25,482 bases of DNA, taken from positions 1-25,482 of the forward strand of contig WGBL01000213.1 in NCBI GenBank assembly GCA_015494375.1, given 5' to 3'. Position 1 is the first letter of the stretch; the number at the start of each line of letters is the position of its first letter. This document shows positions 19,585 through 25,482 of this stretch, in pieces. The notes below the pieces were generated by a model. It ran no database searches, was not told where the DNA came from, and saw nothing but the letters and a program-made list of their open reading frames with translations. The DNA comes from Hyphomicrobiales bacterium. GTDB taxonomy: Bacteria > Pseudomonadota > Alphaproteobacteria > Rhizobiales > S144-23. Made by a program: the position numbers and the translations under genes.

Positions 19585-22500
19585 TCAATTCTCCTGCACG
19601 GCGAGCACGCCGTCCACCTCGGCCAGGGCGGCGGCGCGCTGGGGGGAGATGTCGCGCCTCTCGCCGAGCGCGAGGCTGACCTCGCGACCGAGGTCGGGAA
19701 GCCGTACGAGTAGCCGCACCTCGCCCGCGCCCCTTGCCGAGAGCAGCCCCGCCAGCTCATCGAGCGCCGTCGCACCATTGAGCACCACCGTCAGCCGCTC
19801 CTGCACCCGCCCCGCCGCCTCGTCGAGCGACTGCACCCGGTTCACCCTGAGCCGCATGCCCTCGCCATCGTGCTCACGCTCGGCTTCGAGCCGCACAATG
19901 ACGGTGCGCCCCGTCTCGAGCAACCCATCGGCATCTGCCAGCACATCGGAGAAGACGGCCGCCTCGAATTGTCCGCTGGTGTCGGAGAAGACGACAAAGG
20001 CAAAGCGATGCCCGCTCTTGGCGCGGCGTTCGCGACGGCTGACGACAACGCCCGCCAATGTGCCGTGGGCCTCGCCCCGCTCGATCCGCTCCGCAAATGC
20101 GCTCCAGGTCTCAACACCGAGCCTGTCCAGCACCCCCCGATAGTGATCGAGCGGATGGGCGCTCAGGTAAAAGCCCACCGCCTCGAACTCGCGCGCCAGC
20201 CGCTCGGCGGGCCGCCACGGCCTGGTGTGCACAAGCTCGATCGGGGCGGCGGCCACCTCGGCAGGACCATCGGCGAAAAGATCGTTCTGGCCCGAGGCGC
20301 GGTCGCTCGCCATGCGGTGGGCGGCGGCGAGAATGCGCTCGGTGCTCGCATGCAGGGCGCCGCGCTCGGCGCCCAGGCAATCGAGCGCGCCCGATGCTAT
20401 GAGCCGCTCGAGCGCCCGCTTGTTGATCGCTTGCGGCGCGAGCCGACGTGCAAAATCGCCGAGATCGCGATAGGTCCCGGCGCGCTCCCGCTCCGTGACG
20501 ATGGCCTCGGCGGTGCTCTCGCCAACGTTCTTGAGAGCCGCCAGACTGTAACGGATGGCATCCCCTTCCGGCACAAAGTCGTGAGACGAGTGGTTGATGC
20601 ATGGCGGCCGGATCTCGAGCCCCATGGCGCGCGCCTCATCGACAAAGACGGCAAGCTTGTCGGTGTTGCCAAGATCGAGCGTCATCGAGGCGGCCAGGAA
20701 GGCGACCGGATGGTTGGCCTTGAGATAGGCGGTCTGATAGGCGAGCAGCGCATAGGCCGCCGCGTGCGACTTGTTGAAGCCGTAGCCGGCAAACTTGTCG
20801 ACGAGCTCGAATATGTAATTGGCCTGCGCCTCATCCACGCCGTTGGCCACAGCCCCTTCGACAAAGCGCGAGCGCTGTTTGGCCATCTCGGCCTTGATCT
20901 TCTTGCCCATGGCCCGGCGCAACAGGTCGGCCTCGCCCAATGAGTAGCCCGAGAGCACCTGGGCGATCTGCATCACCTGCTCCTGATAGATGATGACGCC
21001 ATAGGTCTCCTCGAGGATGGGCGCCAGCATCTCGTGGGGGTAGCTCACGGGCTCGCGGCCATGCTTGCGGTTGATATAGGTGGGGATGTTGTCCATCGGC
21101 CCCGGCCGATAGAGCGAGACCATGGCGATGATGTCTTCGAAGCGGTCGGGCTTGAGCTGCTTGAGCGCCTCGCGCATGCCCGCCGACTCGAGCTGGAACA
21201 CGCCAATGGTCCGCCCCTCCGACAAGAGCTCGTAGGTCTTGGGATCATCGAGGCCCAAGCGGGCGAAATCGGGCGCCTCGCCCTCGCCCGATTTGCGGAT
21301 GAGCTCGAGCGTCTTGGCGATCACCGTGAGCGTCTTGAGGCCCAGAAAGTCGAACTTCACGAGCCCCGCCGCCTCCACCCACTTCATGTTGAACTGGGTG
21401 GCCGGGATGGCCGAGCGCGGGTCGCGATAGAGCGGCACCAGCTCGGTCAACGGGCGATCGCCGATGACCACACCTGCGGCATGGGTCGAGGCGTGGCGAT
21501 AGAGCCCTTCGAGCTTCTGGCCGATGTCGAGGAGCTTGGCCACCCGGGGGTCCTCGTCGCGCGCCTCGGCGAGCCGCGGCTCGTCGGCTATGGCTTCTGC
21601 GAGGCTTATGGGGTTGGCCGGGTTGTTGGGCACCATCTTAGAGAGCCGGTCGACCTGGCCATAGGGCATCTGCAACACCCGTCCCACGTCACGCAACACC
21701 ATGCGCGCTTGGAGCTTGCCGAAGGTGATGATCTGCGCCACCCGCTCGGCGCCGTATTTCTCCTGAACATAGCGGATGACCTCGTCGCGCCGTTCCTGGC
21801 AAAAGTCGATGTCGAAGTCGGGCATCGAGACCCGCTCAGGGTTGAGAAAGCGCTCAAAAAGGAGCCCGAACCGCAGGGGATCGAGGTCGGTGATGGTGAG
21901 CGCCCAGGCCACGACCGAGCCCGCACCCGAGCCGCGCCCCGGCCCCACGGGAATGCCTTGCGCCTTGGCCCACTTGATAAAGTCGGCAACGATCAGGAAA
22001 TAGCCCGGGTATTGCATATCGCGGATGACGCCGAGCTCGAAGGCGAGCCGCTCGTAATATGCGTCTTCCGTCGTGCCTGGCGCGGGGCCCGACCGTTTGA
22101 GCCGCGCCGCAAGCCCCGCCCGGGCCTGGCGCTCGAGCTCTTTTGCTTCGAGCGCCGTTTGCGCATCGTCCTTGCGGGCCGCGCCGCTGCTTACGAACGG
22201 CGGCAGGATGGGCGCCCGGCTCACTGGGCGGAAGGCCGAGCGCTGTGCCACCTCGATGGTGTTCTCGATTGCCTCTGGCAGATCGTTAAAGAGCGCGGCC
22301 ATCTCGTCCTGGCTCTTGAAATAATGCTCCGGTGTGAGGCGCCGGCGGTCGCGCTCGCTGATATAGCGCCCCTCGGCAATGCAGATGAGGGCGTCGTGGG
22401 CCTCATAGTCGTCGCGGCTTGGAAAATAGGGCTCGTTGGTGGCAACGAGCGGCAGCCCGTGCTCATAGGCGAGCGCGACCAGCCCGGGCTCAATGCGGCG

Positions 22501-23295
22501 CTCGCTCTCGAGCCCGTGGCGCTGCAGCTCGACATAGAGCCGGTCGCCGAAGATGTCGCGGAGCACAAGCAGGCGCTCTTCGGCGAGCGCACCCTGCCCG
22601 TCAGAGAGCGCGCGGTCGATGGGCCCCTCGGGGCCGCCCGTGAGTGCAATCAGCCCCTCGGCATGCGCGGCCAGAAGGGCGAGGGTGACATGGGGCTCGT
22701 GCGTCTCGGCATGGTCGAGATAGGCGCGACTCGCAAGCGCCATGAGGTTGCGATAGCCGGTCTCGTCTTTTGCGAGGAGTGCGATCTCGCCATCGCTTGC
22801 TTGTTTGCGCTCGTCAGAAGCCTCGCCGGGCGCCGTGCCATTCTCGCCATTCCTGCCGCAAGGTGAGGCTGCCGGGCCCCTTCCGTCGGCTCTGGCCGGG
22901 CTTGCGAACGAAAGCGCAAGCGTCGAGCCAATGATCGGCTGAATGCCGGCGGCCGCCACTTTCTCAGAGAACTCGAGGGCACCGAAGAGATTGTTGCTGT
23001 CGGTGATGGCCAGCGCCACGGCGCCATCGGCCTTGGTCAGCTCAACGAGGCGATCGATGGGCAGCGCGCCTTCGAGCAGCGAATAGGCCGTGTGGGTGCG
23101 CAGATGGACGAAGAGGGGCCGCCTGGCGGCCTCTGCTCGTGCGCGGGCCGAGGCCTTGGCCGCTTTCTTCGCGGACCGTGGCCTGGTGGCCGAGGTTGGT
23201 GCGGGGGCTCCTTTACCACTTGGGCCTCTTCTTCGCCGTCCGCTTCGCCCCCCGCTTCGCTCCGCGGTCTGTCGTACCTTCGTTGCCTTTGCCAT
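19585..23295 (-). CDS. dnaE: DNA polymerase III subunit alpha
   Basis: 1236 aa. PHP (HLRTHTAYSLLEG, ITDSNNLFG), GPGRGSGAGS, FERFLNPERVSMPDFDID, KFDFLGLKTLT, GVFQLES, LYRPGP, FAGYGFNKSH, OB fold. No intein or frameshift. ATG 23295 has GGAAGG 5 nt upstream. Confidence 0.98.
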   Translation of the reverse strand: MAKATKVRQTAERSGGRSGRRRRGPSGKGAPAPTSATRPRSAKKAAKASARARAEAARRPLFVHLRTHTAYSLLEGALPIDRLVELTKADGAVALAITDSNNLFGALEFSEKVAAAGIQPIIGSTLALSFASPARADGRGPAASPCGRNGENGTAPGEASDERKQASDGEIALLAKDETGYRNLMALASRAYLDHAETHEPHVTLALLAAHAEGLIALTGGPEGPIDRALSDGQGALAEERLLVLRDIFGDRLYVELQRHGLESERRIEPGLVALAYEHGLPLVATNEPYFPSRDDYEAHDALICIAEGRYISERDRRRLTPEHYFKSQDEMAALFNDLPEAIENTIEVAQRSAFRPVSRAPILPPFVSSGAARKDDAQTALEAKELERQARAGLAARLKRSGPAPGTTEDAYYERLAFELGVIRDMQYPGYFLIVADFIKWAKAQGIPVGPGRGSGAGSVVAWALTITDLDPLRFGLLFERFLNPERVSMPDFDIDFCQERRDEVIRYVQEKYGAERVAQIITFGKLQARMVLRDVGRVLQMPYGQVDRLSKMVPNNPANPISLAEAIADEPRLAEARDEDPRVAKLLDIGQKLEGLYRHASTHAAGVVIGDRPLTELVPLYRDPRSAIPATQFNMKWVEAAGLVKFDFLGLKTLTVIAKTLELIRKSGEGEAPDFARLGLDDPKTYELLSEGRTIGVFQLESAGMREALKQLKPDRFEDIIAMVSLYRPGPMDNIPTYINRKHGREPVSYPHEMLAPILEETYGVIIYQEQVMQIAQVLSGYSLGEADLLRRAMGKKIKAEMAKQRSRFVEGAVANGVDEAQANYIFELVDKFAGYGFNKSHAAAYALLAYQTAYLKANHPVAFLAASMTLDLGNTDKLAVFVDEARAMGLEIRPPCINHSSHDFVPEGDAIRYSLAALKNVGESTAEAIVTERERAGTYRDLGDFARRLAPQAINKRALERLIASGALDCLGAERGALHASTERILAAAHRMASDRASGQNDLFADGPAEVAAAPIELVHTRPWRPAERLAREFEAVGFYLSAHPLDHYRGVLDRLGVETWSAFAERIERGEAHGTLAGVVVSRRERRAKSGHRFAFVVFSDTSGQFEAAVFSDVLADADGLLETGRTVIVRLEAEREHDGEGMRLRVNRVQSLDEAAGRVQERLTVVLNGATALDELAGLLSARGAGEVRLLVRLPDLGREVSLALGERRDISPQRAAALAEVDGVLAVQEN

Positions 23296-23403
23296 TCACG
23301 CCTTCCCGGATCGGCTTGCACACGATCGCAACGCGCGTGGTCTCGTGCCCCCGCGAGTGCTCTGCTCCCCGTGCCCTGCACAGCGCACTGGTCGTGCGAG
23401 GCG

Positions 23404-23471
23404 CCCGACTGAGCCCGACTCACGGGCCCGACCAAGGCCCGACTCGCCGCCGACTCACAAATCCCGACTCA
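23404..23471 (-). promoter_or_regulatory. Tandem CCGAC(T/C) repeat array containing four GANTC (CcrM) sites upstream of dnaE
   Basis: Six units spaced 10-13 bp. GACTC at 23417, 23441, 23452 and 23466, reading TGAGTCG, CGAGTCG, TGAGTCG and TGAGTCG on the dnaE coding strand. Confidence 0.7.
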
Positions 23472-23576
23472 CTAATACTGAATAATGCCCGCCCCACGCC
23501 CCACTGCAACCGGCCGAGGGGCGGGCGGTGGACGAGCCGCGCAGCGAGGCGCGAGGCGCCTCAGTGGCAAGGCGCC

Positions 23577-24275
23577 TCAGTCGATGGGATGTAGAACACC
23601 CCCCTCGAGCTTGAGCACGCGATCCATGCGCTCGGCCAGCGCCATGTTGTGGGTGGCGACGAGGGCCGCAACGCCGGCGCCCCGCACCAGCGCGATGAGC
23701 TCATCAAAGACGCGATCGGCCGTCTCGGGGTCGAGATTGCCCGTAGGCTCATCGGCGAGCAGCAGCGTGTCGCCATTGCCCGCGCGCTCGCCAATGAGCC
23801 ACGGGTGCTGCTCGCCGCCCGAAAGCTCGCCGGGACGATGCCCGTGCCGGCCATCGAGCCCCAGGCGCCCAAGCAGCTCCGCCGCCCGCACCTCGGCCTC
23901 GCGCCGCCCGCGGCCCATGATGCGTTGCGGCAGCACGACATTCTCGAGGGCCGAGAACTCGGGCAAGAGGTGATGGAACTGATAGACATAGCCGATCTCA
24001 CGGCGGCGAATGCGGGTCCGCTCGCTGTCGGCAAGGCGCGTGCAGTCGCGACCGTCAAGGATCACCTGGCCCGCATCGGGGCGCTCGAGGAGCCCCGCCA
24101 TGTGGAGAAGCGAAGACTTGCCCGCGCCCGAGGGCCCGACAAGCCCCACGATCTCGCCACCATGGAGGGCGGCCGAGGCGCCTCTCAAAACATGGATCTC
24201 GCGCGGACCCTGGCGATAGGTGCGCACGAGCCCCTCGAGGCGGAGGGTCGCCTGCTCGGTATTTGTCCTTTGCAT
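23577..24275 (-). CDS. lolD: Lipoprotein-releasing ABC transporter ATP-binding protein LolD, carrying an internal 41-bp inversion
   Basis: 232 aa. Walker A GPSGAGKS, Q-loop YQFHHLLPEF, signature LSGGEQ, Walker B/D-loop LLADEPTGNLD, H-loop VATH. The 15 residues between signature and Walker B are non-canonical in this orientation. Directly follows lolC/E. Confidence 0.93.
   Translation of the reverse strand: MQRTNTEQATLRLEGLVRTYRQGPREIHVLRGASAALHGGEIVGLVGPSGAGKSSLLHMAGLLERPDAGQVILDGRDCTRLADSERTRIRRREIGYVYQFHHLLPEFSALENVVLPQRIMGRGRREAEVRAAELLGRLGLDGRHGHRPGELSGGEQHPWLIGERAGNGDTLLLADEPTGNLDPETADRVFDELIALVRGAGVAALVATHNMALAERMDRVLKLEGGVLHPID
23753..23817. other. Intragenic inversion: 41-bp segment (23765-23805) flanked by perfect 12-bp inverted repeats
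   Basis: CGGCGAGCAGCA (23753-23764) and TGCTGCTCGCCG (23806-23817) are exact reverse complements. The + strand reads [21 protein letters not shown], the canonical ABC-ATPase sequence, inside a minus-strand gene. Confidence 0.95.
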
Positions 24276-24282
24276 GGCGCCC

Positions 24283-25482
24283 CTACTCGTACCTCAGCGC
24301 TTCGACCGGGTCCAATCGAGAGGCGCGCCAGGAGGGATAGAGCGTCGCCAGCACCGAAATCACCACCCCCATCGCCACAATCAGTGCGGTCTGTGTCACA
24401 TCCATGCGCGCCGGCAGGCTCGCCAGATAATAGAACTCGGGATCGAACAGCTTGGTGCCGGTGAGCCGGGAGATGAACTGGCGCACGCTCTCGATGTTCT
24501 CGCAAACGATGACACCGAGCAGCAGCCCGGCCAGCGTACCAACAATCCCGATGCTCGCCCCGGTGATCAGGAAGACGCGCATGACCGCGCCCTTGGTCGC
24601 ACCCATCGTACGCAGAATGGCAATGTCGCGCCCCTTGTCTTTGACGAGCATGATGAGGCCCGAGATGATGTTGAGCGCCGCCACGAGCACGATGAGGCTC
24701 AGGATCAGGAACATGACATTGCGCTCGACCTCAAGCACGGTGAAGAAGCTGGCATTGCGCTCGGTCCAGTCGGTGACGAAATGGCGCGGTGCACCGGCAA
24801 TCGTCAGCCGCTCCTTGATTTCGGCGATGTTCTCGGGATCGTCCACCATCACCTCGAGCACGGTCACCGCGTCGCGACTGTTGAAAAAGCGCTGCGCCTC
24901 GGCGAGCGGCATGAAGATGATGCTGCGGTCGTATTCCGACATCCCGATCTTGAAGATGGCGGTGATGGGATAGCGCTTGATGTTGGGCTTGGTGCCAAAG
25001 ACGGTCGCCCGGCCACGCGGATTGACGAGCGTGACCGTATCACCGACGCGGACCTGAAGCTGGCTTGCCATCCGGCTGCCGATGGCGATTGCGGCACGGC
25101 CATCGAACCCCTCGAGCGAGCCGTCGACGATATTGCCACCGACAAGGGGCATGCGTGCGATGTCGGCGCCGCGCATGCCGCGCACAAGCGCGCCCACGCT
25201 CGTGGCCGGCCCCGCGACCATCACCTGACCCTCGACGAGGGGCATGACACTCACCACGCCCTCGACGCGCGCAAGCTTCTGCGCCACCTCGTCAAAGCCG
25301 GTGAACGGCTCGCCGACCCTATGGACGACGGCATGGCCATTGACGCCCAGGATCTTCTCGAAGAGCTCGGCGCGAAAGCCGTTCATCACCGCCATGACAA
25401 TAATGAGCGTGGCAATGCCCAGCATGATGCCGAGAAAGGAAAAACCGGCGATCACCGAAATGAACCCCTCGCGCCGGCGCGA
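24283..25482 (-). CDS. lolE: Lipoprotein-releasing ABC transporter permease LolC/E (5' end outside window)
   Basis: Frame is open to the window edge (SRRREGFISVIAGFSFLGIMLGIATLIIVMAVMNGF). Also FKIGMSEYD, ERNVMFLIL, AALNIISGLIMLVKDKGRDIAILRTMGA, ATLYPSWRASRLDPVEALRYE. Confidence 0.95.
   Translation of the reverse strand, partial: SRRREGFISVIAGFSFLGIMLGIATLIIVMAVMNGFRAELFEKILGVNGHAVVHRVGEPFTGFDEVAQKLARVEGVVSVMPLVEGQVMVAGPATSVGALVRGMRGADIARMPLVGGNIVDGSLEGFDGRAAIAIGSRMASQLQVRVGDTVTLVNPRGRATVFGTKPNIKRYPITAIFKIGMSEYDRSIIFMPLAEAQRFFNSRDAVTVLEVMVDDPENIAEIKERLTIAGAPRHFVTDWTERNASFFTVLEVERNVMFLILSLIVLVAALNIISGLIMLVKDKGRDIAILRTMGATKGAVMRVFLITGASIGIVGTLAGLLLGVIVCENIESVRQFISRLTGTKLFDPEFYYLASLPARMDVTQTALIVAMGVVISVLATLYPSWRASRLDPVEALRYE

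Follow-up and report, generated by a model that had tools for sequence, protein, structure and literature searches.

The inversion found within lolD of the Hyphomicrobiales bacterium assembly GCA_015494375.1 is, judged from assembled contigs, most probably a strand-switch chimera or an assembly artefact, and the inverted form is most likely not a state of the genome that occurs at appreciable frequency. The window, i.e. the whole stretch of 25,482 nucleotides that was analysed, is the entire contig C213, the longest contig of a fragmented MAG from a hydrothermal vent (465 contigs, 2.81 Mb, 88.6% complete); its features are collected in Table 1. The original prediction had interpreted the inverted segment in three ways, as one state of a reversible switch giving two LolD isoforms, as a fixed lesion rescued by a paralogue, or as an amplification or assembly artefact. 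The last of these is favoured by our results, as the inversion is confined to the deposited contig and independent assemblies are canonical, and the first two were not borne out.

Table 1 Features of the window, with positions counted from its first nucleotide
Feature	Position	Strand	Sequence or remark
dnaE, downstream of lolD	19585-23295	-	
First arm of the natural 10-bp inverted repeat within dnaE	22544-22553		TCGCCGAAGA; 23-bp spacer to the second arm
Second arm of the natural 10-bp inverted repeat within dnaE	22577-22586		TCTTCGGCGA
lolD, ATP-binding subunit of LolCDE	23577-24275	-	232 aa; contains the inverted segment; top NCBIfam family TIGR02211
Left arm of the perfect 12-bp inverted repeat	23753-23764		CGGCGAGCAGCA (+ strand); on the gene strand, the (L)LLA(D) Walker-B codons
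Core of the inversion	23765-23805		41 bp; aa 157-171; inverted here relative to all independent records
Right arm of the perfect 12-bp inverted repeat	23806-23817		TGCTGCTCGCCG (+ strand); on the gene strand, the GGEQ signature-motif codons
lolC/E-type permease gene, immediately upstream of lolD, truncated by the contig end	24283-25482	-	TIGR02212

In a search of the NCBIfam models, the deposited lolD product was best matched by TIGR02211 (LolD) with 211.2 bits, and its canonical form, obtained by flipping the core, with 247.3 bits, which puts the cost of the flip against this model at 36 bits. The curated equivalog cut-off of 307.75 bits is reached in neither orientation, although LolD is the top-scoring family for both. 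A LolC/E-type permease, the neighbour expected of a LolD, is encoded by the adjoining gene and scores 453 bits against TIGR02212 (lolCE), above the curated cut-off of 362.45 bits. The nearest solved structures are those of Escherichia coli LolD in LolCDE (7v8l, 7arh, 7mdx and others), with which the canonical window protein aligns over residues 10-228 (E 1.5e-62); the two have in common the segment LSGGE(R/Q)QRVAIARAL...LADEP and the adjacent lolC/E permease gene, whereas in the deposited protein 13 of the 15 residues at 157-171 are replaced by the antisense reading. The nearest named homologues in the protein cluster search are alphaproteobacterial, for instance those of Rhizobium and Hoeflea, and the relatives in the species collection are kin at the level of the order only, with a top LolD identity of 64%.

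The deposited minus-strand reading frame encodes GELSGGEQ-HPWLIGERAGNGDTL-LLADEPTGNLD. The repeat finder returned the perfect 12-bp inverted repeats that had been described around a 41-bp core, and reverse-complementing this core in silico gave, again as described, the textbook LolD segment at unchanged length and with no stop codon in either orientation. Thirteen residues (157-160, 162-166 and 168-171) are altered by the flip. Comparison of the codons agreed with the further claim that the repeats are the gene's own GEQ(Q) and (V)LLA codons: GGC-GAG-CAG-CA (G-E-Q-Q/H) reverse-complements codon by codon to TG-CTG-CTC-GCC (V/L-L-L-A), and since the arms are reverse complements of each other in frame, the flip keeps the frame. 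The inner 5-bp pair (CATTG at 23774-23778 and CAATG at 23792-23796) is also present as claimed. The canonical strand folds as a hairpin, with a 12-bp stem and inner pairs, at -27.5 kcal/mol (z -3.1). The segment of arms and core lies wholly within one coding sequence, as an intragenic inverton would; the spacer has been swapped exactly for its own reverse complement with nothing gained or lost, as in the product of a template switch; and both junctions sit at the 12-bp reverse-complementary arms, as in a chimera.

The deposited orientation contains, in addition, a second inverted repeat of 15 nt (14 of 15 positions matching, at 23746-23760 and 23786-23800), which dominates the predicted fold of the deposited strand (-28.5 kcal/mol). 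Since LANEP (165-169) and LADEP (173-177) use near-identical codons, this pair is a direct repeat, 24 nt apart, in the canonical orientation, where it forms a potential slippage site.

The stretch is present in three public runs, which are hydrothermal vent metagenomes of one study taken from separate samples (X1, X2 and X3), and their Logan contigs were compared with the window over 23300-24600. Logan contigs drop rare variants and are read here as evidence of presence, not of absence. The X1 contig (record 2, 2070 bp, depth 16) matches 23413-23764 and 23806-24600 on one strand but the 41-bp core on the other, with joints at 23764/23805 and 23765/23806 and 12 bases assignable to either side. 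The X3 contig (record 17, 284 bp, depth 4.1) has the same canonical structure, and the X2 contig (record 11, 177 bp, depth 10.1), which covers the left junction only, passes from left flank and arm into a core whose orientation is the reverse of that in the window. At the level of Logan contigs, with rare variants dropped, all three runs are canonical, and the junction in the orientation of the window is spanned by none of the contigs listed for X1, X2 and X3.

The protein encoded by the window falls into a 90%-identity cluster of three members, the other two being encoded by a Logan contig (L038, SRR10312500_1211373) and by contig JALUIU010000675.1 (L039) of a sister MAG deposited at NCBI, GCA_027057525.1. 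Both of these proteins (P0002 and P0003) have the canonical segment, with the signature helix and Walker B intact, and the protein with the inverted segment is known from one contig only, the deposited one. Over 1893 aligned bases, L039 and the window disagree at 28, of which 27 lie within the core and all vanish after flipping; the two are then equal at 1892 of 1893 bases, and the residual mismatch is at the end of the L039 contig. L038 has the identical 27 core mismatches together with 11 SNPs scattered over 2070 bp, and is, by its sequence, a different strain from the window. As all 27 core mismatches vanish on flipping in both L038 and L039, what separates them from the window here is a clean inversion, exact to the base, rather than a chance resemblance. 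Moreover, L039 carries the alleles of the window at seven SNP sites (23446-23581), and therefore the window's own haplotype exists in the canonical form. The inversion is thus unreproduced by the independent assemblies, i.e. the three Logan assemblies and the second NCBI MAG, as would be expected of an artefact, and the real organism most likely has, to judge from these contigs, an ordinary, functional LolCDE system.

With regard to the haplotypes themselves, the X1 strain (L038) differs from the window in, among others, the last lolD codon (D232G), with variation at 23446-23581 and 24790-24820, and X2 carries a third haplotype with 11 differences within 23984-24537. The possibility that the contig combines two strains fused at the inversion, to which the X1 SNPs on one side only had pointed, was considered and ruled out, since L039 shares the haplotype of the window on both sides and X1 represents another strain.

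We propose the following series of steps for the origin of the deposited sequence. The natural 12-bp inverted repeat of canonical lolD would let a single strand fold into a hairpin, and during library preparation or amplification strands may switch template at the arms, giving fold-back chimeric molecules. A switch at the left arm would produce left flank, arm, inverted core, arm and reversed left flank, and a switch at the right arm would produce the mirror image, so that the two kinds of chimera together would furnish both junctions of the configuration seen in the window. An assembler that accepts both junctions could then thread left flank, inverted core and right flank into a stop-free inversion of 41 bp; it can thread the inverted core because the 65-bp unit of arm, core and arm has identical k-mers both ways. 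We infer the exact step behind the double junction, that is, the read chimeras and the assembler or merging stage that was involved. The weakest link of the artefact explanation is that two minority edges would have been taken consecutively by the assembler, which is unusual. Against a pervasive internal error stands the observation that one of the 30 signature-to-Walker-B segments of ABC ATPases in the MAG is flipped, the aberrant one being that of lolD; the lolD repeat of 12 bp is the longest among these 30 sites (the next longest is 9 bp), which fits lolD as the sole site affected.

Signs of strand switching are found elsewhere in the MAG data. At 27 of 930 contig ends, the last 15-130 nt repeat, in reverse complement, a sequence that lies 0-339 nt further inward, compared with 0 of 18,600 random internal cut points; examples of such fold-back ends are the 3' end of C14 (130-nt arm, 3-nt loop), the 3' end of C314 (129-nt arm), C299, C73 and C124. 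Similarly, perfect inverted repeats of at least 18 nt within 500 nt touch a contig end in 32 cases, and only 5 are internal spaced pairs, the other internal repeats of this class being short simple palindromes. The sequence of these fold-back ends is probably spurious, and false gene fragments could result from it. The sister contig L039 ends in the same manner, as it leaves the gene strand at the 10-bp repeat in dnaE, runs 12 nt back on the opposite strand and stops, which gives a terminal fold-back (L039:1881-1902) with a 22-nt arm and a 23-nt loop, 1.2 kb from the lolD site and at a place where the window is normal. A 10-bp repeat is far below the k-mer lengths normally used by de Bruijn assemblers, and therefore the L039 junction must come from strand-switched reads. 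Further strand-switch junctions above background, as the artefact explanation would predict, are thus present in the MAG data.

Artefacts of this kind have been described previously. Artefact chimeric fragments arise when end repair joins single strands through short reverse-complementary regions (SimFFPE/FilterFFPE, PMC8458033). In MDA, inverted sequences make up more than 85% of the chimeras, and complementarity of 2-21 nt primes more than 70% of the junctions (Lasken and Stockwell 2007, PMC1855051). The lolD inversion is like these chimeras in that the switch is at a short (12 nt) complementary stretch, in that the MAG data hold many other strand-switch junctions and in that the inversion is missing from independent assemblies. 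It differs in that the classic product has a single junction, whereas the two junctions in lolD make an in-place inversion inside a contig. A paper on the study behind SRR10312500 or GCA_027057525.1 / JALUIU01 was sought for the library method, and none was found.

The inverted allele had been thought impaired, and the conservation of the affected residues supports this. Among 115 homologues with equal spacing, Q157, R163 and P169 are invariant, R158, A160 and A164 are conserved at 99%, V159 at 97% and A166 at 87%; conservation is 87-100% at nine of the 13 recoded positions, and at those nine the deposited residue occurs in 0-1% of the homologues. With the flip, the stretch that separates the signature motif from Walker B has one proline, four glycines and charged residues where a buried helix would be, and the intact ABC signature helix and Walker B are missing in the deposited LolD (HPWLIGERAGNGDTL). 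On these grounds, a LolD of the deposited form would probably not work. No second lolD was found in the 88.6% complete MAG, the next ABC ATPase being 38% identical. LolCDE is essential in model Gram-negative bacteria. The loss of conserved residues, the lack of a second lolD and the essentiality of LolCDE together make a dominant population with the inverted allele implausible. The proposed fixed lesion rescued by a paralogue is not supported, given the lack of a second lolD and the canonical state of the same haplotype in the sister MAG.

The inversion could also have arisen as a real mutation, by a template switch during replication in vivo that inverted the spacer at the hairpin, with the resulting loss-of-function allele of lolD, transient or tolerated in the population, common enough in the source sample to be assembled. 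In the four-point model of Loytynoja and Goldman 2017 (PMC5453318), who cite Ripley 1982 for the inter-strand switch, such a switch inverts the spacer of an inverted repeat, and the form of the lolD product is exactly as predicted, the spacer being replaced base-exactly by its reverse complement and nothing else being altered. The strand folds into a stable hairpin, and no repeat of this kind in the genome is longer than the 12-bp one, which would make lolD the likeliest site to flip. In addition, the source run of the MAG may lie outside the three runs compared, and as the window haplotype is not dominant in X1, the inverted allele may still be common in another sample. However, the template switch of the model arises in living cells, whereas the inverted form of lolD is known from the deposited contig alone. 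The window haplotype is canonical in the sister MAG, the three runs of the study yield canonical contigs only and the inverted-junction words are complete in no indexed run. The mutation would also destroy nine residues of at least 87% conservation in the helix between signature motif and Walker B with no paralogue at hand, the essentiality of LolCDE makes a high frequency unlikely, and the dataset demonstrably contains artefactual strand switches. We therefore regard an in-vivo origin as unlikely, and a strand-switch or assembly artefact as the better explanation of the deposited contig.

Further inverted copies were sought among public runs, proteins and genomes. The run index was queried with 113 bases spanning both inverted junctions, sampled as 8 words (31-mers). 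X1 and X3 hold 0.63 of the words, X2 0.50 and other runs at most 0.25; a run that holds the canonical form only is expected to have about 57% of the words, because k-mers within the unit of arm, core and arm are identical in both orientations. The full set of inverted-junction words (8 sampled) is held by no indexed public run. Unrelated metagenomes from soil, freshwater, sediment and hot springs contain two of the 31-mers (share 0.25 of the 8 sampled), and the depth of vent-run contigs peaks at 190-290 at 23740-23783. The DNA of the signature helix is near-identical across many GC-rich bacteria and is therefore a place at which metagenome assembly graphs tangle.

At the protein level, a search with residues 140-185 against 5.8 billion clusters gave 94 bits for the protein's own cluster and at most 52 bits for the other matches listed, and the flipped peptide is absent from all 121 other proteins among these. 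The lolD genes of 28 relatives are all canonical, and the corresponding repeat in them is at most 9 bp long, i.e. it is unconserved as DNA. A DNA pattern made of the signature codons followed by the reverse-complemented RVAIARA helix was scanned across 185,579 species genomes, as a partial test that covers GGC-GGC-GAG codon usage and RVA(I/M)ARA-type helices. None of its 56 matches is a flipped ABC ATPase; they were rejected as canonical genes with a chance-fitting ARA(I/M)AT helix or as antisense or unrelated contexts. A scan of JGI metagenomes with the exact gene flanks and a free 41-nt core gave no additional copy of the species. Its sole match, L096:1991-2075 (Ga0310900_10002172), is an ABC ATPase of an unrelated organism in which the core is canonical (QQRVAIAKAIAHKPM). 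The 22-nt flanks of this match are identical to those of the window on both sides, the perfect 12-bp inverted repeat included, and on the evidence of its sequence the repeat recurs there by codon convergence, without a flip. A screen for other micro-inversions in the MAG by GC content at third codon positions was dropped, as the two orientations of the lolD core are similar in this respect (13/15 versus 11/15, hand-judged).

These searches do not support the suggestion that other GC-rich ABC ATPases may flip likewise, since no case was seen among the 29 other sites of the MAG, the 28 relatives and the 121 listed proteins, and no real one in the partial-pattern scan of the species genomes. The accompanying premise, that GEQQ...LLA codons often form the inverted repeat, has weak support: among the 30 sites of the MAG the 12 bp of lolD are the maximum, the next longest repeat being 9 bp, and the lolD genes of the 28 relatives have repeats of 9 bp or less.

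The same observations bear on the proposal of a reversible intragenic inverton, whether enzyme-mediated or a spontaneous hairpin flip-flop, by which LolD would alternate between an active isoform and an inactive or alternative one. That recoding intragenic invertons exist is known from the work of Chanin et al., 'Intragenic DNA inversions expand bacterial coding capacity' (bioRxiv 10.1101/2023.03.11.532203), in which examples down to 57 bp were confirmed in Bacteroides thetaiotaomicron. The lolD segment resembles these in being frame-preserving and stop-free in its recoding, in lying wholly inside a gene between inverted repeats and in having a size near that of the 57-bp BT0375, and both orientations do occur among the public records of the vent population. 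However, the second orientation is that of a single deposited contig and its junctions are in no independent assembly or indexed run; as for both orientations in one sample, the three runs are canonical in contigs that drop rare variants, and no run has the complete inverted-junction words. In the cited paper itself, 49 of 59 intragenic invertons predicted from metagenomic short reads could not be confirmed. The lolD repeat consists of conserved codons of the family. It is unconserved as DNA in the 28 relatives, none of which is flipped, and the target is a conserved helix in the catalytic core of an essential housekeeping ATPase; the alternative peptide has no counterpart among the closest proteins listed.

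A possible enzyme for such a switch was looked for as well. A profile search of the MAG (88.6% complete) gave no match to the serine invertase family PF00239. Three PF00589 genes are present, all on contigs other than C213, and at least two of them look like ordinary XerC/D by size and count; an invertase able to act on the lolD repeats was not found in this 88.6% complete MAG. The original prediction was correct in that the window has no recombinase gene, none being present on C213. Taken together, we consider a reversible inverton in lolD to be very improbable. Hairpin-loop inversions are known in organelle genomes, and the hairpin of GGEQQ and LLA codons might by analogy act as a spontaneous, enzyme-independent flip-flop site, so that part of the population would carry a revertible LolD-off allele; this, too, we find scarcely credible.

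The artefact explanation has consequences for data quality. Where a micro-inversion is base-exact and introduces no stop, the ORF stays at full length and gets through gene calling and domain annotation, and as a result the public protein record carries 13 nonsense residues in the catalytic core, which should be treated as wrong. The hunt for invertons in metagenomes calls for caution in the same way, since strand-switch chimeras at hairpins can mimic recoding invertons. Where codon usage is GC-rich, conserved motifs (here GGEQ and LLA) are encoded by codons that reverse-complement each other in frame and so give rise to such hairpins. A real reversible flip in an essential ATPase, if true, would represent a novel and striking form of phase variation, and the evidence speaks against it; were the flip-flop reading true, it would mean heterogeneity of lipoprotein export in the vent population. 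For the biology of the organism, the inversion is most likely of no consequence, and the organism almost certainly has an ordinary lolD.
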